A stretch of 64,000 nt of DNA. Origin: Octopus sinensis (Eukaryota). Both the position numbers and the translations under genes were made by a program. Under the pieces are notes generated by a model. That model saw only the letters and a list, made by a program, of their open reading frames with translations. It ran no database searches and was not told the DNA's origin. Below, in pieces: positions 941 through 55,260 of the stretch. The stretch lies in the NCBI RefSeq assembly GCF_006345805.1, contig NC_043001.1:109306001-109370000 (forward strand), read 5' to 3'. Each line of letters opens with the position of its first letter. The first letter of the stretch is position 1.

Positions 941-1330
941 CGCACTGGGGTCGATGTAACCGTTTGTCTGTCCTTGTTTGTCCCCTCTGTATTTAGCCCC
1001 TTGTGAGTAGTAAATAAATATGTATTTCGTCTGCTGTTACGTTCTGAGTTCAAGTTACGCCGAGGTCGACTTAGCCTTTCATTCTTTCGGGGTCGATAAA
1101 ATAAGTATCTATTTCTTTACTGCCCACAAAGGGCTAAACACAGACAAGGACAGAAAAATGGATTAAGTCGATTACATCGACCCCAGGGCGTAACTGGTAC
1201 TTATTTAAACGACCCCGACAGGATGAAAGGCAAAGTCGACCTCGGCGGAATTTGAACTCAGAACGTAGCGCAGACAAAATACAGCTATGCATTTCGCCCG
1301 GTGTGCTAACGTTTCTGCCAGCTCGCCACC
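941..1330. mobile_element. SINE-A inverted pair: + strand tail+body fragment (941-1108) abutting a full - strand copy (1109-1330)
   Basis: - strand copy has A-box-like TGGCAGAAACGTTAGC, B-box GAGTTCAAATTCC, central GTCGACTTTGCCTTTCATCC core and tail ...GTGGGCAGTAAAGAAAT. Confidence 0.9.
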
Positions 1331-8341: not shown

Positions 8342-9281
8342 GTCCTCAACGTCAGCAACAGCGTTAAAAGTCGAATCATACTTTAAGTAAATAAAATTTC
8401 TGTTGTTCTTTACTTCGCGTTTCTTGTACTAAAGTGCAACATTTCATCGCTCTTCGGTTTCCTGGCCACTCTCAAAATTCTCTATTATATGTTACACATA
8501 GAATATGTACTCCAGTCGAGTTATTATAAGCTTCATGTGGTTTACCTCCTTTATTTTTCCTTCCATTCAGTGGCCCCTTTCGACCTATTGTACTTTTGCT
8601 GTTTGACCTTTTGATGTATGGACCATTAATCATTACCAGAATTGAATCTCCCTTTTCCCTATTTAACTGTGTTCTATTCTGCTATATATTATTATTATTC
8701 CTTCCTTTCAAAAAACAAAAAAACAAAAAAAAACAGACATAAATAGGTCTTATTACTTGTCGTTTATCCTTAATGGAACTGGTTTGAACGTTTGAGATGC
8801 TACCTATACTTATTGTCACAAAAAAATGTTTGAAATATTGGTTGATTTAATATCGCCGAAAGGTGAAGTTCCTGTAACATATAATTCTTATTTCTTTAGG
8901 GGATTCTTCAGTATTTAGCAGAAAAGAAATAAAACCGTAGATGAATTACAACTGAATAAACAAACAAAATTACACACATTTATATATATAGTCAACCTAT
9001 TTAAATAGTGGTATACATGAATGCACTCAAATTTAGATATCCACACATATTCTTATAGTGGGTAGTAAAGAAATAGGTATTTCGTTTATCGTTACGTTCT
9101 GAGTTCAAATTCCGCCGAGGTCGACTTTGCCTTTCATCCTTTCGGGGTCGATAAAATAAAGTACCAGTTTCGCACTGGTGTCGATATAATCGACTTAATC
9201 CCTTTGTCTGTCCTTGTTTTTCCCCTCTATGTTTAGCCCCTTGTGGGCAGAAAAGAAATTATATATATATATATATATATA

Positions 9282-9331
<50 letters not shown>

Positions 9332-9402
9332 GTAATGTATGTATGTATGTATGTATGTATGTGTGTCTATGTATGTATATACCGTCTCACATATACATGT
9401 AA

Positions 9403-9610
9403 TCATCATCGTCGTCATCATCATCATCATCATCGACATCATCATCATCATCATCATCATCATCACCTAGTTCCCTTCACTTGTGCAGTCAGACGTTGGG
9501 GTGCAGCTTTAGGCGTTTTTGGAGTCAGCCATCACAGATCTCATAGATCTCATGTATCTTACATCTTACCTTGATGCGGTATGGACCGAGATTCCCGTTG
9601 ACGGGACTTT
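9403..9610 (-). mobile_element. Probable RTE-type LINE 3' end with (TGA)n tail; second copy at about 11240-11450
   Basis: - strand ...RSVMADSKNA* followed by a short UTR and (GAT)n, the same tail repeat as the RTE at 27117. Confidence 0.45.
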
Positions 9611-9644
9611 GGCATTAAACAGAACGTTAAACATTCACGTTATG

Positions 9645-10585
9645 CGAATTAGTAACTCCAGAACTGGAAGAAGCATGGCTGATGACAGCCATAATGTTCA
9701 ATATGAAGAATGGGGCCATGATACTGAAGGCCACAAGAACTAATAAACTCAATTACTGGGGATATGGGATCGAACTCACTACCCAGGCAACAGTAGAGGA
9801 TTTGAATAGGATTGCGGAGGAGATAGCGCTACCAGACGACTCGAGATTAAGAATGAAGGTAGAGAGCAAGACGCCTGTATGTTTTGAATGTGGAATGAAG
9901 GGCCATATGAAGGCATGGTGCACCAGAAAAAGCAGCAAGTAGAGCAGGTGGAGAGACAAGAGAGCGTGGACCAGGTAGAACATGTCGAGACAAAGGAAAA
10001 AGAAACAGAGGATGATTTTACTATGGTAAAAAAAAGAAGGAGGAACGGATGGCTAGGTTCTCCGCCAGAGAAACAGAAAAAGAAGGAAGAAGATATGAGA
10101 AAAGAAACTGTGAAGGAGGTCAGCAGGAAGGAAGACGAAGGGTGGCAGAGAAAGAAAGTAAAAAGAAAGTGGAGTTAAAAGTAAAGATACCAGTTGTTCC
10201 GGTGGAAAAGGATTCGGAAATTCAACTGGCTGAAGAGGAGATGGAGGGACTGTTTAGAGTGGAGGAGGAACAGAGAGAACAAAGAGTTCCAAATAAAGGT
10301 AAGAAAATACAAGGAGGAAATGGAGTTTGGTATTACGTGACCTACCCGAAGAATGTAGAAACAGAGAAGAAGATAGTCAAGTTTAGTCAAATAGTAAGGG
10401 TGGACGTACCATCATACATATATGCAGAGGATATGAAAGTGATAGTGATCAAAAAGGAAAATTACAGGAAACTGGAAGAAATGTGTGGAGATAGTATTGA
10501 CCCACCAGGAGTAAGGGTGGAATTCAAAGAATTGCCACCAGTAGTAGATTTAGTGGAAATTGAACCAGTGATGGAGTACTACTAA
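9645..10585 (+). pseudogene. L1/Tx1-type ORF1 (gag-like CCHC zinc knuckle), frameshifted, copy 1
   Basis: PELEEAWL...RLRMKVESKTPV-CFECGMKGHMKAWC (CX2CX4HX4C), then a K/E-rich region and a C-terminal domain ending EPVMEYY*. Confidence 0.8.
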
Positions 10586-11119
10586 AAAGTAAATAAGTAT
10601 GTTATATTGAGTGAAAAGAAAAAGAAAAGAAAAAAGCAAAAGGAAAACAAAAAAATAAAATGGAATAAAAAAAGGAGTAAAGTGTTTTATGTTATGTTTT
10701 TAAAAATATTGGGAAATAGAAGAACAATTGTAGAGAATGTATATAACGGTTCAAATACTTGCAATGGTATGTAACACGATAATTAATTCTTATGTAGATA
10801 CATGATAAAAATGGACTACATGTGATGAGGAGCCATTCATAACCTCATTGTTATATAATCATAAAGGGCGGCGAGCTGGCAGAAACGTTAGCACGCCGAG
10901 CGAAACGCGTAGGCGTATTTCGTCTGTCGTTACATTCTGAGTTCAAATTCCGCCGAGGTCGACTTTGCCTTTCATCCTTTCGGGGTCGATAAAATAAAGT
11001 ACCAGTTTCGCACTGGTGTCGATATATCGACTTAATCCCTTTGTCTGTCCTTGTTTTTCCCCTCTATGTTTAGCCCCTTGTGGGCAGAAAAGACATATAT
11101 TATATATATATATATATAA

Positions 11120-11160
<41 letters not shown>

Positions 11161-11273
11161 GTATGTATGTATGAATGATGTATGTATGTATGTAGTAGTG
11201 TTCTATGTATGTATATACCGTCTCACATATACATTTATATCATCATCGTCGTCATCATCATCATCATCATCGA

Positions 11274-11305
<32 letters not shown>

Positions 11306-11484
11306 CCTAGTTCCCTTCACTTGTGCAGTCAGACGTTGGGGTGCAGCTTTAGGCGTTTTTGGAGTCAGCCATCACAGATCTCATAGATCTCATGTATCTT
11401 ACATCTTACCTTGATGCGGTATGGACCGAGATTCCCGTTGACGGGACTTTGGCATTAAACAGAACGTTAAACATTCACGTTATG

Positions 11485-13046
11485 CGAATTAGTAACTCCA
11501 GAACTGGAAGAAGCATGGCTGATGACAGCCATAATGTTCAATATGAAGAATGGGGCCATGATACTGAAGGCCACAAGAACTAATAAACTCAATTACTGGG
11601 GATATGGGATCGAACTCACTACCCAGGCACAGTAGAGGATTTGAATAGGATTGCGGAGGAGATAGCGCTACCAGACGACTCGAGATTAAGAATGAAGGTA
11701 GAGAGCAAGACGCCTGTATGTTTTGAATGTGGAATGAAGGGCCATATGAAGGCATGGTGCACCCAGAAAAAGCAGCAAGTAGAGCAGGTGGAGAGACAAG
11801 AGAGCGTGGACCAGGTAGAACATGTCGAGACAAAGGAAAAAGAAACAGAGGATGATTTTACTATGGTAAAAAAAAGAAGGAGGAACGGATGGCTAGGTTC
11901 TCCGCCAGAGAAACAGAAAAAGAAGGAAGAAGATATGAGAAAAGAAACTGTGAAGGAGGTCAGCAGGAAGGAAGACGAAGGGTGGCAGAGAAAGAAAGTA
12001 AAAAGAAGTGGAGTTAAAAGTAAAGATACCAGTTGTTCCGGTGGAAAAGGATTCGGAAATTCAACTGGCTGAAGAGGAGATGGAGGGACTGTTTTTAGAG
12101 TGGAGGAGGAGAGGAACAGAGAGAACAAAGAGTTCCAATAAAGGTAAGAAAATACAAGGAGGAAATGGAGTTTGGTATTACGTGACCTACCCGAAGAATG
12201 TAGAAACAGAGAAGAAGATAGTCAAGTTTAGTCAAATAGTAAGGGTGGACGTACCATCATACATATATGCAGAGGATATGAAAGTGATAGTGATCAAAAA
12301 GGAAAATTACAGGAAACTGGAAGAAATGTGTGGAGATAGTATTGACCCACCAGGAGTAAGGGTGGAATTCAAAGAATTGGCCACCAGTAGTAGATTTAGT
12401 GGAAATTGAACCAGTGATGGAGTACTACTAAAAAGTAATAAGTATGTTAATTGAGTGAAAAGAAAAAGAAAAGAAAAAAGCAAAAGGAAAACAAAAAAGA
12501 AAATGGAATAAAAAAGGAGTAAAGTGTTTTATGTTATGTTTTTAAAAATATTGGAAATAGAAGAACAATTGTAGAGAATGTATATAACGGTCAAATACTT
12601 GCAATGGTATGTAACACGATAATTAATTCTTATGTAGATACATGATAAAAATGGACTACATGTGATGAGGAGCCATTCATAACCTCATTGTTATATAATC
12701 ATAAAGGGCGGCGAGCTGGCAGAAACGTTAGCACGCCGAGCGAAACGCGTAGGCGTATTTCGTCTGTCGTTACATTCTGAGTTCAAATTCCGCCGAGGTC
12801 GACTTTGCCTTTCATCCTTTCGGGGTCGATAAATTAAGTACCAGTTTCGCACTGGGGTCGATATAATCAACTTAATCCCTTTGTCTGTCTTTGTTTGTCC
12901 CCTCTATGTTTAGCCCCTTGTGGGTAGTAAAGAAATATATATAATCATCTCATCATATTCGTTCTATGTATTGTCCCCTCTGTGGTGTCCTGTCTGTCCT
13001 TGTAGGTCCCCCTCTATGTTTGGGCCCTTGTGGCTAATAAAGAAAC
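11485..13046 (+). mobile_element. ORF1-only non-LTR element, copy 2: ORF1 to stop 12431, A-rich 3' UTR interrupted by SINE-A (12707-12936), AATAAA at 13036 and a SINE-A-like tail
   Basis: SINE flanked by TSD-like TATATAATCAT; the remaining UTR ends GTCTGTCCTTGTAGGTCCCCCTCTATGTTTGGGCCCTTGTGGCTAATAAAGAAAC. Confidence 0.7.
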
Positions 13047-13800: not shown

Positions 13801-14100
13801 GACTTGTAGCAGTGGACAGTCAGCGCTATGGCGATCAGAGCTCGCTCTCAACACCATTGGGCTGACTGTCTGCTGATACGAGCCCACAGTCAGCGCTACG
13901 GCGATCAGAGCTCGCTCTGAGCGCCATTGGGCTGACTGTCCGCTGATACGAGCCCACAGTCAGCGCTATGGTGATCAGAGCTCGCTTTGAGCGCCATTGG
14001 GCTGACTGTCCGCTGCTACGAGCCCACAGTCAGCGCTATGGTGATCAGAGCTCACTCTGAGTGCTATTGGGCTGACTATAGGCTCGTACCAGTGGACAGT
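13799..14100. repeat. 70-bp GC-rich minisatellite (about 4 units), each a 54-bp imperfect palindrome plus a 16-bp spacer
   Basis: CAGTCAGCGCTA recurs at 13817, 13887, 13957 and 14027. Confidence 0.95.
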
Positions 14101-19730: not shown

Positions 19731-19797
<67 letters not shown>

Positions 19798-19799
<2 letters not shown>

Positions 19800-20215
19800 C
19801 GCAGGTGTGGGTGTGTGGTAAGAATCTTGCTTCCCAACCACATGGTGTCGGGTTCAGTCCCCCTGGGTGGCACTTTGGGCGTGTCTTCTACTATAGCTCG
19901 GGTGGACAAAATCCTTGAGTGGATTTGATAGATGGAAACTGAAAGAGGTGGCCGTCGTGTTATATATATATATATACACCACCAGGTGGTGCTATTAAGT
20001 TAGACATGGCCTGGGCCAATAATGGCCGAAACCTATCAAAGTATCAAAGTATCAAAGTATACACTGTTTGAACGTACACTGTATTCTTCTTTGAATAATA
20101 TATAGTCTATTGACTAATTTTTTCTTTCTCGCTAGAGCACTGGTAACTAAGAATTTTTCTATGAATATTCTTGCTACTCTCAGATTTTAATTTATACATA
20201 TATATATATATATAT

Positions 20216-20247
<32 letters not shown>

Positions 20248-21094
20248 ATATAGGCGCAGGTGTGGGTGTGTGGTAAGAATCTTGCTTCCCAACCACATGG
20301 TGTCGGGTTCAGTCCCCCTGGGTGGCACTTTGGGCGTGTCTTCTACTATAGCCTCGGGTGGACAAAATCCTTGAGTGGATTTGATAGATGGAAACTGAAA
20401 GAGGTGGCCGTCGTGTATATATATATATATATACACCACCAGGTGGTGCTATTAAGTTAGACATGGCCTGGGCCAATAATGGCCGAAACCTATCAAAGTA
20501 TCAAAGTATCAAAGTATACACTGTTTGAACGTACACTGTATTCTTCTTTGAATAATATATAGTCTATTGACTAATTTTTTCTTTCTCGCTAGAGCACTGG
20601 TAACTAAGAATTTTTCTATGAATATTCTTGCTACTCTCAGATTTTAATTTATACATATATATATATATATATTATATATATATAATATATATATAGGCGC
20701 AGGTGTGGGTGTGTGGTAAGAATCTTGCTTCCCAACCACATGGTGTCGGGTTCAGTCCCCCTGGGTGGCACTTTGGGCGTGTCTTCTACTATAGCCTCGG
20801 GTGGACAAAATCCTTGAGTGGATTTGATAGATGGAAACTGAAAGAGGTGGCCGTCGTGTATATATATATATATATATACACCACCAGGTGGTGCTATTAA
20901 GTTAGACATGGCCTGGGCCAATAATGGCCGAAACCTATCAAAGTATCAAAGTATCAAAGTATACACTGTTTGAACGTACACTGTATTCTTCTTTGAATAA
21001 TATATAGTCTATGACTAATTTTTTCTTTCTCGCTAGAGCACTGGTAACTAAGAATTTTTCTATGAATATTCTTGCTACTCTCAGATTTTAATTT

Positions 21095-21098
<4 letters not shown>
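19798..21098 (+). repeat. Tandem triplication of an about 450-bp unit (SINE-B 5' half + (TA)n + about 220-bp insert + (TA)n)
   Basis: Units start at 19798, 20253 and 20696 and are almost identical outside the TA tracts. Confidence 0.95.
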
Positions 21099-21164
<66 letters not shown>

Positions 21165-30073: not shown

Positions 30074-30455
30074 GGCGGCGAGCTGGCAGAAACGTTAGCA
30101 CGCCGGGCGTAATGCTGAGCGGTATTTCGTCTACCGTTACGTTCTGAGTTCAAATTCTGCCGAGGTCGACGTTGCCTTTCATCCTTTAGGGGTCGACTAA
30201 ATAAGTACCAGTTACGCACTGGGTCGATATAATCGACTTAATCTGTTTGTCTGTCCTTATTTGTCCTCTCTGTGTTTAACCCCTTGTGGGTAGTAAAGAA
30301 ATAGGTATTTCATGTGTCTTTACGTTCTAAGTTCAAACTCCGCTGAGGTCGACTTTACGTTTCATCCTTTCGGAGTCGATAAATTAAGTACCAGTTACGT
30401 ACTTGGGTCGATCTAAATCTCCCAAAAATTCGGGCCTTGTCCCTAGAGCAGAAAT
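30074..30455 (+). mobile_element. SINE-A dimer: head + type-1 body + type-2 body
   Basis: Junction AAAGAAATA|GGTATTTC at about 30303; flanking TSD TTAATATAA(T/G)TTA at 30057 and 30455. Confidence 0.9.
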
Positions 30456-40695: not shown

Positions 40696-41378
40696 CAGCA
40701 TTTCTCAACTATAAGGCGGCGAGCTGGCAGAAACGTTAGCACGCCGGGCGAAATGCTTAGCGGTATTTCGTCTGTCGTTACGTTCTGAGTTCAAATTCCG
40801 CCGAGGTCGCCTTTGCCTTTCATTCTTTCGGGGTCAATTGAATAAGTGCCAGTTACGCACTGGGGTCGATATAATCGACTTAATTCATTTGTCTGTCCTT
40901 GTTCGTCCTATCTGTGTTTAGCCTCTTGTGGGCAATAAAGAAATATGTATTTCTCAACCATGAACCCCTTTGATTCACTTCTTTACTCATACAGTCTCTC
41001 CTAGTCATTCGATCTTAAAAGAACTATTATGTTTTTATAATTGAGCTGTCAGAAACGTTAGCGCGCCGAGTTCAAATTCCGCCGAGGTCGAGTTTGCTTT
41101 TCATCCTTACGGGTCGATAAATAAAGTACCAGTTTCGCACTGGGGTCGATGTAATCGACTTAATCCCTTTGTCTGTCCTTGTTTGTCCCCTCTATGTTTA
41201 GCCCCTTCTGGGCAGTAAAGAAATATATAACTGAATGTTATTAGAAATTGCATAAAAATAATCATTGGAACATTTTGTGTATTGTAGAAGCATAACCAGA
41301 TTATTGGAGATAAACTTTAACGGCAAAATCTTATATGGGCCGCCAAGGGCCCATATGAACCTCGGTTAAGAACCACGG
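40696..41378. mobile_element. Probable hAT (Charlie-like) MITE carrying two SINE-A insertions (40715-40945, 41043-41225)
   Basis: Ends CAGCATTTCTCAAC... and ...GGTTAAGAACCACGG; flanks TTCTAAAG and CTCTGATG resemble a decayed 8-bp NTCTAGAN-type TSD. Confidence 0.5.
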
Positions 41379-47486: not shown

Positions 47487-48321
47487 CATCATGTCTTCAT
47501 TTTCCATTTGAGGGGAATGCTAATGGTCGAGAAATTATTACAGACCATATGTAAATTATTTTGGAAGCTGGGCATTGTTTTGATGCAACGATCAATGATT
47601 TGGTTTCACCAATGGGTTGAAGACATGAGAGAGAGCTTATAACCGTATCAGTGGTCGCTTCGATTTATTGGAAGATTTTTTATTGTTGCTGTAGTTTAAC
47701 TGACCGACGTTGAAATACGCTTCTTTCCTCATCATTTCATCTTATGTTTAGAGTCAGTGAGTATAAAATTGTTTGAAATTTTCACACAAGGCCGGCGATA
47801 GACTACAGTCGATTACATATATTATAGTATTTAAATGTTACTTTATCTTACCGATCTTAAAACGATGAAAGGCTAAGCTGACTTTTGAATTCAGATTAAG
47901 GAAAGCCGTAAGAAACAACGCTAAGCATTTAGTTCGATGCACTAATGATTCTACCAGTTCGCTGCTTTAATGGTTTGAAATTTTGGCACGAGGCCAGCAA
48001 TACTAGCAAGGAACATTATCGACTATATTAACAACAATTGCTCGACTACTATTTATTTTACTGACACCGAAAGAATGAAAGACAAGTTTGCCCTCAGCGG
48101 GGGGTTTGAACTCATATTGTGTATAACATTATGATATCCAGTGTATCAACGCTTTTTCAAGATGATAATAGGGCGTGAATTTCTCGAAAGGCTCGACTCC
48201 TTTTTCTATACAGGTCATACAATTTCTGATTTTCTTCCATTCATTTTTTTTATGTAAGGTTGATAGAATTGTGTAGTGTTGTACAACATTTGTCAGTCTA
48301 TGAGCTTATATTTGTTGTTGT

Positions 48322-48902
48322 TTATTTATTGTCCACAAGGGGCTAAACATAGAGTGGACAAACAAGAAGAGACGAGGGGATTTAGTCGATTATATCGACC
48401 CCAGTGCTTAACTAGTACTTATTTAATCGACCCCGAAAGAATAAAAGGCAAAGTCGACTTCGGCGGAATTCGAACTCAGAACATAGCGGCAGACAAAATA
48501 CCTATTTCTTTACTACCCACAGAGAGGAAAAACAAATACAGACAAACGGATTAAGTCAATTATATCGACTCCATTGCACAACTGGTACTTATTTAATCGA
48601 CCCCGAAAGGATGAAAGGTAAAGTCGACCTCGGCGGAGTTTGAACTCAGAACATAGCGGCAGACGAAATACCTATTTCTTTACTACCCACAAGGGCTAAA
48701 CACAGAGAGGACAAACAAAGACAGACAAACGGATTAAGACGATTATATCGACCTCAGTGCGCAACTGGTACTTATTTAATCGACCCCGAAAGGACGAAAG
48801 GCAAAGTCGTCCTCGGCGGAATTTGAACTCAGAATGTAACGGCAGAGGAAATACCGCTAAGAATTTCGCCCGGCGTGCTAACGCTTCTGCCAGCTCGCCG
48901 CC
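48322..48902 (-). mobile_element. SINE-A trimer: one head + three bodies
   Basis: Junctions (+ strand AAATACC|TATTTCTTT) at about 48502 and 48672. Confidence 0.92.
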
Positions 48903-49584
48903 TTCTATGAGCTTATTTTGACGGGGTGATTGTTGCTTCTCAAACATCCAAATTCAGTTAAAACACACCAATCAGATACTTTGACTGGAATATATCGATT
49001 ACAACGCCTCCTCCAAATCTGATTCTTGCCTTAGGATTCCTTCAGCAACTGATTCCTCTTTTTTTTTTTTTTTTGATGATGAGCAAATTCCTTACAAATC
49101 AAATATTTCAAAGTAATAGTCTACTTGAAAGCAAAACGAAAAAAAAAAGGTCTCGTGTTCGAATTTTGATCAGTTTGACGTTGTCTCTGTATTTCACCCT
49201 ACGAACTAGAGATGATCCGTTTGCTTGCTCTGTTACACGGAGTGCAAGTCATGTGGCTAAGAATTTAAAAGTGCTAGGCATACAGTCATAAAAGGTCGCG
49301 GGTTCGACTTCCGGAATTCCTGAGCCGAGCGCTCATATAAACACATACACACACCTATACGCACACACCTATACCAACAAAAGTTTTTTAATGAATGCAC
49401 TGAAAATAGTCAATACAAAGACCTAACGCACACACATACACAACGCCTTAATTAAATAAGGAAATGAATAATATCGTTCCAAGTTCGTTTATACGGTCTA
49501 GCACCTTGAACAAATGTCTTTCACTGTAGCCTCATGTTGATAACAGCGTTCCATTCGGCAGACAGAAACTGAAGTACGTCGCGC

Positions 49585-54346: not shown

Positions 54347-55260
54347 GCGGAATTTGAACTCAGAATGTAAAGACAGGTGATATAAAGCTAAGCCTGTTGT
54401 CCGGTGCTAACGATTCTTTTCTACTAAGGCCTGAACTTGGGGGGAGGGTGATAGTCGATTACATCGACCATAGTGCGCCACTGGTACTTAAGGATGAAAG
54501 GCAGAGTCGGCCTTGGTGGAATTTGAACTCAGAACGTAGCGGCAGACGGTAATACCTATTTCTTTACTACCCACTAGGGACTAAACATAGAAGGGACAAA
54601 TAAAGTCAGACAAACGAATTAAGTCGATTATATCGACCCCAGTGCGTAACTGGTAGTTATTTAATCGACGCCGAAAGGATGAAAGGCAAAGTCAACCTCG
54701 GCGGAATTTGAACTCAGAACGTAGCGGAAGACGAAATACCTATTTCTTTATTACCCACAAGGGCCAAACATAGAACGGACAAACAAGGACAGACATAGGT
54801 ATTAAGTCGATTACATCGACCCCAGTGCGTAACTGGTACTTATTTAATCGATCCCGAAAGGATGAAAGGCAAAGTCGACCTCGGCGGAATTTGAACTGAC
54901 AACGTAACGGCAGACGAAATACCGAAAAGCATTTCCCCCGGCGCGCTAACGTTTCTGACAGCTCGCTGCCTGAATAATAATAATGATTGATAATAATAAT
55001 AATAATAATCATCTTTTCTACTCTAGGCACAGGGCCTGAAATTTTTAGGGGAGGGGGCCAGTCGATTAGATCGACCCTAGTACGCAACGGGTACTTAATT
55101 TAATTAATTAATTAATAAATAATAATAATAATAATATAATAATAATAATAATAATAATAATAGTAATGGTTTCGAACTTTGGCTGATGCCAGCATGTTTG
55201 AGGGAGGGGGTAAATCGATTACATCGGCCTAACTGCTGAACTGCTATGTTATTGATCCCG
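54347..55260 (-). mobile_element. SINE-A stack: head + two type-1 bodies + type-2 body (54411-54970), plus further type-2 fragments separated by (TAA)n
   Basis: Junctions at about 54556 and 54740; tails at about 55010 and 55165. Confidence 0.88.

Follow-up and report, generated by a model that had tools for sequence, protein, structure and literature searches.

In the genome of Octopus sinensis, each array of the repeat family that we call SINE-A opens with one complete type-1 element, and every element behind it starts exactly at a single internal base, G48. Judging from these products, the head+(body)n arrays may be chimeric retrocopies, each made in one reverse transcription event and brought into the genome by one insertion, a reading to which we give an even chance. 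Their anatomy is that expected of template switching: one target-site duplication, a full-length 5' partner, a 5'-cut 3' partner, and partners that are unrelated to each other.

SINE-A and its arrays

The window is the whole stretch of 64,000 nucleotides that was analysed (NC_043001.1, positions 109,306,001 to 109,370,000), and the host genome comprises 2.72 Gb in 13,516 contigs. A body follows the 47-nt head of SINE-A, and in type 1 it extends to consensus position 231 and ends ...GTAGTAAAGAAATA. In types 2a and 2b positions 1-166 are common, followed by different 3' parts, and the end of the 2a tail is similar to the type-1 tail. Type 1 includes the subfamilies beta (tail GGGTAGTAAAG...), delta (tail GGGTAATAAAG...), alpha (tail GGGCAATAAAG...) and gamma (tail GGGCAGTAAAG...). 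With its duplications (9-21 bp around 46 of the 77 full monomers), its copy number and its 5'-truncated copies, SINE-A has the features of a tRNA-derived SINE mobilised by a LINE (the stringent, tail-sharing type). Only on visual inspection does its head resemble a tRNA: ARAGORN reported no tRNA across the window (0), and Rfam at E up to 1 gave no match in 48250-48950 (0). SINE-A may resemble the CORE-type SINEs of octopus. A search of 1.464 Mb for a partner LINE sharing the tail found none: just 10 of 161 tail matches lack an upstream SINE core, and these have no common upstream sequence.

The focal array lies on the minus strand at 48322-48902 and comprises head positions 1-47 and three bodies within one 13-bp target-site duplication. 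Its single tRNA-like head (consensus 1-47) occupies 48856-48902 (minus). On the same strand follow body 1 (48673-48855, consensus 48-231, ending ...GGGTAGTAAAGAAATA), body 2 (48503-48672, consensus 48-231, lacking a few internal bases near 203-217), which begins GGTATTTCG at 48672/48673, and the terminal body 3 (48322-48502), with a type-1-like tail ...GGACAATAAATAA + ACAACAACAAAT. The two copies of the duplication, both TCTATGAGCTTAT on the plus strand, are found at 48297-48309 on the 3' side and at 48904-48916 on the 5' side. TRF describes the focal stretch as a repeat with a period of 183, 2.7 copies and 86% matches. Contigs from other samples (four runs, three other organism labels), compared with 48150-49150, lead from the left flank into the 3' end of the array and stop there; since they enter the array, the focal insertion is common to those samples.

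Further arrays are present in the window. A trimer at 54413-54970 (minus) carries a head with a delta-type body (54741-54970), a beta-type body (54557-54740) and a type-2a terminal unit (54413-54556). The dimer at 30074-30454 (plus) joins a full type-1 unit (30074-30303) to a type-2a unit that starts at position 48 (30304-30454). As the preliminary description of the window had stated, both arrays end with the 3' part of another type, here 2a, and the dimer as a whole is enclosed by a duplication, TTAATATAA(T/G)TTA. At 9060-9259 (plus) a 5'-truncated array retains a 16-nt tail fragment, GGGTAGTAAAGAAATA, and a body (48-230), the upstream head being absent. An array fragment at 941-1107 (plus) joins positions 141-231 to 49-134 and is interrupted by a type-1 copy in the opposite orientation (1110-1330, minus) at the site G(G/A)TACTTATTT. 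A type-1 monomer at 40715-40945 (plus) has the duplication ATTTCTCAAC.AT.A and, behind its tail, three extra nucleotides (TGT) like the start of a next body.

Other repeats accompany these copies. A tandem segmental duplication (9077-11100 versus 10915-12940) is 97.6% identical over 2,043 bp with a period of about 1,838 bp, and its left edge falls exactly on SINE position 48/49. We considered it as a before-and-after record of a junction and dropped this idea, as recombination between SINE bodies explains it: the duplication is the product of unequal recombination of the headless body at 9076 with full copies at 10867 and 12707. A 457-bp tandem repeat at 19736-21155 (3.1 copies, 95% matches) holds in its unit a second, different SINE-like element (GGCGCAGGTGTGG...) and a TA microsatellite. 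At 13806-14100 there is a 70-bp (and 140-bp) tandem repeat with an internally palindromic unit (ACAGTCAGCGC...GGGCTGACTGT).

Seven junctions had been reported for the window and all are present, at 1020/1021, 9075/9076, 30303/30304, 48502/48503, 48672/48673, 54556/54557 and 54740/54741. Each leads from the type-1 tail ...AAAGAAATA to position 48 (GGTATTTCG) with no gap; the first reads AAATAAATA joined to TGTATTTCG. Genome-wide, a 28-mer spanning the junction has 25,600 matches (reversed control 0). A 30-mer spanning it has 11,004 exact matches, against 0 for its reversed control, which places the junction far above chance.

Frequencies were taken from an unbiased sample of 1.464 Mb (1.4 Mb of seven contigs plus the window), which contains 378 SINE-A matches, 87 same-strand neighbouring pairs and 35 arrays (29 dimers, 6 trimers); the total for the genome would be roughly 700,000 copies. 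When junction positions are tallied over the 87 pairs, a type-1 tail leads to position 48/49 in 33 (gap 0-6), to position 15 in 7 and to position 22 in 1; no type-1 tail leads to position 1 (0/87). There are 1-7 extra bases at 8 of the 41 tail-to-48/15/22 junctions. In another 25 of the 87 pairs a type-2a or 2b tail is followed, after a spacer of 1-28 nt, by a complete head. These are ordinary side-by-side insertions, and they indicate that members of the family often land directly behind each other's tails. Downstream units begin with GGTA in 124 of the 127 scored. At positions 48-51 GGTA is present in the first units of 43 of 67 arrays and in 28 of 53 monomers, which are alike in this respect. 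Runs of 6-10 evenly spaced junctions also exist in the genome.

The genome also contains head-only tandem arrays, in which positions 1-63 plus 2-4 bases recur with a period of 65-67 in up to 10 or more copies (loci L246-L252; C1:195358953-195359250, C7:15322782-15323084 and C3430:1373-2210 of G000). They end in one full element and are thus the mirror image of head+(body)n.

A pairing rule at targets and junctions

Subfamilies with the tail GGGTA(G/A)TAAAGAAATA have genomic duplications that begin GGTA(Y) and a junction at position 48, where the element reads GGTAT. Those with the tail GGGCA(A/G)TAAAGAAATA have duplications that begin AGAA and a junction at position 15, where it reads AGAA. 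In the unbiased sample of 1.464 Mb, 24 beta/delta tails lead to position 48 and 1 leads to position 15; of the alpha/gamma tails, 1 leads to position 48 and 6 lead to position 15. Genome-wide, GGTATTTC follows 25,600 of 67,403 exact beta tails (38%) but only 585 of 17,516 exact alpha tails (3.3%). The bases behind the tails of terminal copies divide in the same way: GGTA follows 23 of the 40 beta/delta copies but none of the 21 alpha/gamma copies, and AGAA follows 9 of these 21 but none of the 40.

In 13 of 20 full-length delta copies, 9-10 bases counted from the end of the tail (or +1) are repeated just upstream of the head, which shows the post-tail word to be part of the target. At their fifth position the duplications have T or C, as expected of pairing with U. 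One rule, GGTA(Y) or AGAA according to subfamily, thus holds at genomic targets and at internal junctions. That target starts differ between SINE subfamilies argues for RNA pairing over enzyme specificity (such as that of a partner-LINE endonuclease of the Tx1 clade); since these subfamilies would share an in-trans enzyme and still differ in the choice of word, it would be the RNA, and not the endonuclease, that reads these bases. Three independent delta copies (loci L172, L176 and L177) have duplications that all begin GGTATAC, two of them sharing ten bases (GGTATACAAT). This common start may mark the flank of a common source gene.

An array appears to be one unit that was inserted once, because a duplication of score at least 9 surrounds 30 of 48 full-length arrays as compared with 46 of 77 full-length monomers. 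Duplications are rare around 5'-truncated arrays (0/6 and 1/10) and also around truncated monomers (7/37 and 1/11), so the truncated copies carry no weight here. The arrays pooled for these comparisons number 94 and include loci that were selected because they match an exact junction word or subfamily word (sets J, K and D); pattern positions were left out of divergence counts for them. Among the 94, 21 begin past position 12, and 14 are cut inside the first unit with non-SINE DNA upstream, 8 of these 14 beginning past position 62.

A template-switch route could bring these features together. The reverse transcriptase would copy a SINE-A RNA (type 1 or 2a) back to G48, and the 3' end of the cDNA (...ATACC) would pair with GGUAU behind the tail of a beta/delta type-1 RNA, just as a nicked GGTAY target would. 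The template for this ...ATACC primer would be an RNA ending ...AAAGAAAUAGGUAU. Synthesis would then go on along the acceptor RNA until it reached the head or switched once more, and in the alpha/gamma subfamilies an equivalent switch could take place via AGAA at position 15. Because an array retains a single Pol III head and is free of T4 runs (the unit consensus has no T4 terminator), it could subsequently be transcribed and copied again as a unit. Long arrays would have gained extra units via unequal crossing-over.

The route has to assume a stall of the enzyme, or an RNA 5' end, at G48. GGTA also occurs inside the tail (position 217) and is used there as a junction only 14 times, so pairing alone cannot explain the sole use of 48. 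In the Alifold structure 47/48 borders an apical tetraloop on its 3' side, and 3 of 7 sequences show covariation of pair 43:48; a cut or stall of the RNA at this point is speculation. The junction hairpin of 5 bp (GAAAU/AUUUC) was given no weight, as its z-scores are only -1.4 to -1.8.

More tentatively, and at best as a possibility, the 4-5 bases behind the tail could act as a heritable address. It would be read by primer pairing, copied into the flank of the daughter, where it would begin the target-site duplication, and specific to the subfamily (GGUAU or AGAA). As the address words recur at G48 and A15, nascent cDNAs of relatives would prime there and the family would assemble its own multi-unit elements, an RNA-guided route from dispersed repeat to tandem array.

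Alternative origins of the arrays

The alternative that survives best, though we think it rather unlikely, is an inherited composite SINE: the junction would have arisen once or a few times, arrays would be copies of dimeric or multimeric source genes, and monomers with GGTA duplications would come from priming at the internal tails of multi-unit RNAs. Such inheritance would account for the genome-wide binding of junction use to tail subfamily (38% versus 3.3%), for whole arrays that have one duplication and are 5'-truncated as units, for the GGT or TGT found between tail and duplication start in some type-1 monomers, and for the missing T4 terminator inside the unit consensus. A further point concerns a beta sub-type, T125/A128, which is nearly always internal (internal in 18 of 21 copies, terminal in only 4 of 16); it weakens the template-switch reading, as free switching explains it less well than inheritance from array-type source genes. 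Neighbouring units moreover share rare variants five times as often as random pairs (0.54 versus 0.10). Taken with the tail-subfamily link and T125/A128, this sharing means that inheritance plays some part.

Array-level lineages, however, are not seen. Variant sharing of the last-but-one unit does not predict that of the last (r = -0.13, permuted -0.03 +/- 0.06, 666 array pairs). Arrays are mosaics of many subfamily combinations, for example type 1 beside 2a, and seven delta-first arrays have five architectures. Descent of all dimers from one dimeric master, which the preliminary description had considered, is thus not what the arrays display; co-inherited units and position-specific diagnostic bases, the marks of a multimeric master, were likewise lacking. 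Array-terminal 2a units, when set against young 2a monomers, have no derived site of their own. GGTATAC in 3 of about 11 delta duplications suggests that the source was a monomer flanked by this word, and both junction classes follow the 4-nt rule whichever of three kinds of partner is joined. Head position 19 (A/T) did not discriminate as a marker of head ownership between first and last unit: where the array ends in 2a, the base is A in 31 and T in 11, young 2a monomers A in 8 and T in 5, and beta/delta monomers A in 29 and T in 4.

Self-insertion, the model of the preliminary description, is less probable again. It holds that type-1 elements are inserted by TPRT into a nicked resident SINE-A at GGTAT (position 48) and that the cDNA is resolved by homology to the resident head, so that one head is left. 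GGTAT at 48 agrees with the GGTA(Y) start of beta/delta duplications, array units are mutually unrelated, and DNA-level insertions into SINE-A do exist. At an antisense site, GGTAC, there are 359 exact genome matches, among them the window copy at 1110-1330 and loci L193 and L199, with the word GGTACTTA(T/A)TT(T/A)ATCGACC and 17-bp duplications. A true nested insertion at 48, by comparison, retains the new head and duplicates 48 to about 60, as in locus L253 ([1-58][1-231][48-217]) and similarly in L245. Only 64 exact matches of this retained-head kind were found, several of them within head-only tandem arrays. The preferred site inside SINE-A is real and is used by genuine insertions, but the proposal that such insertions make the arrays is not supported. 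Set against 25,600 headless junctions, the 64, 359 and 14 cases (the last at the tail-internal GGTA) leave DNA-level insertion a few per cent at most. Headless junctions outnumber antisense insertions about 70:1 and retained-head sense insertions about 400:1.

Resolution by homology to the resident head would leave units 1 and 2 with a segment, 48 to about 60, that is common by descent, and the units do not show this. They are not unusually alike at 48-62, where 3 of 71 short arrays have rare variants in common; in five control segments 2-5 of 71 do. Nor did the rate of nested insertion bear the model out when compared with equivalent sites of SINE-A. Further points against self-insertion are that positions 48-51 do not read GGTA in 24 of 67 first units, that the succession of head, 5'-cut new copy and body occurs in 0 cases in 1.464 Mb, that 14 of 94 arrays are cut inside the first unit and lack the upstream head, and that alpha and beta differ more than 10-fold in junction use, though a shared enzyme would treat both alike.

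Self-insertion also predicts inner units that are younger than the terminal unit and unrelated to it. That they are unrelated was borne out (identity 0.904 within 2-3-unit arrays, 0.898 between arrays). Terminal units are also the more diverged: type-2a terminal units differ by 5.6% and the upstream type-1 units by 3.6% (n=34, Wilcoxon p = 0.0002), and first and last type-1 units by 3.4% and 4.5% (n=26, p = 0.037). This excess has the direction of nested insertion, yet it also tracks subfamily class. Alpha copies have the same divergence (5.0-5.7%) as monomers and as array members. That the ages of adjacent units are uncorrelated (rho 0.09) counts against the template-switch reading. Against nested insertion, divergence is lower in array-terminal 2a units (5.6%), which are mostly young (14 of 16 in set S), than in young 2a monomers (8.3%); 2a monomers with intact GGTA comprise 6 old and 8 young, a weak age-class test. 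The age tests are ambiguous. For the youngest subfamily the route could matter, as 29 delta loci include 7 arrays and 2 antisense insertions, near the GGTAT:GGTAC preference of about 10:4. We retain nested self-insertion as an unlikely, minor route.

Tandem duplication of the body in situ, by slippage or unequal crossing-over after insertion of a monomer, is very improbable as the origin of the arrays and is ruled out for short ones, because units in 2-3-unit arrays, those of the window included, are no more alike than random copies (0.904 versus 0.898) and are not each other's closest relatives, because neighbours often belong to different subfamilies or families, and because independent events would not strike one base pair tens of thousands of times. 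It does apply in part to arrays of at least 4 units. Within-array identity there is 0.929 (4-6 units) and 0.938 (7 or more), about 20% of unit pairs are at least 97% alike as against 0.3% between arrays, runs of 6-10 junctions are equally spaced, and one array (L020) has a higher-order repeat of 3 units, its unit 5 being identical to unit 8. We read the raised identity and this higher-order repeat as unequal crossing-over.

Relation to known systems

The passage from a dispersed SINE to a tandem repeat is a still-open question, and in the published descriptions of a clam and of reptiles head+(body)n arrays were earlier attributed to unequal recombination. In the octopus, one junction at tens of thousands of loci, placed under the pairing rule of ordinary insertion, makes the question testable: self-insertion, cDNA switching and inheritance predict different states of empty sites in sister species and different RNA ends. 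The target choice of non-LTR elements could, by our reading of the subfamily words, be set by RNA instead of the endonuclease. For annotation, numbers of copies and ages that are estimated as if every unit were a separate insertion will be wrong, since about 40% of one tail type lies inside arrays. A literature search found no paper on the G48 junction or on a subfamily-specific post-tail word, which does not prove that there is none.

The closest parallel in form is the blood clam Scapharca broughtonii, for which TSD1-(SINE)n-TSD1 arrays are described and unequal homologous recombination is suggested (PMC11481361). As in the clam account, there is one duplication per array, the first unit has the complete tRNA head, middle units are cut at one head position and the last has the complete tail (PMC11481361). 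The clam units are described as cut at the 3' tail also (PMC11481361), whereas inner octopus units keep the full type-1 tail, are unrelated, and are often followed by a last unit of another SINE type. The 4-5-nt rule that ties the octopus junction to genomic targets is a further difference from the clam.

The SINE-derived satellites of squamates are likewise reported to consist of tandem units that represent part of a SINE, with a last unit that is longer and extends to the SINE terminus, and to be more homogeneous at long loci (PMC10702118). That account describes satellite-like amplification at the level of the locus, with junctions that vary between taxa (PMC10702118); in the octopus there is one junction at tens of thousands of loci, mostly with 2-3 unrelated units. 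Multimers of Dip and B2 and Alu-type dimers have also been described (PMC8466645; PMC10702118). A large share of Dip and B2 copies lies in head-to-tail multimers, as in the octopus, and insertion into tails versus dimeric templates is presented as an open question there too (PMC8466645). The units of Dip, B2 and Alu-type multimers are, as described, full-length and each with its own head, but octopus type-1 tails precede no head (0/87).

With regard to mechanism, template switching has been proposed for the exchange of SINE modules (PMC4758252), and U6/L1 chimeras are described as retrocopies produced by template switching of the LINE reverse transcriptase (10.1101/2025.02.02.635956). The octopus arrays are like the chimeras described there in having a full-length 5' partner and a 5'-cut 3' partner, one duplication, and partners that are unrelated. 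The 3' partner of U6/L1 chimeras is cut at varying points, whereas the octopus break is fixed at G48 or A15, which match the bases behind the acceptor tail. Unlike U6 and L1, moreover, both octopus partners belong to one SINE family, and the process repeats to n units.
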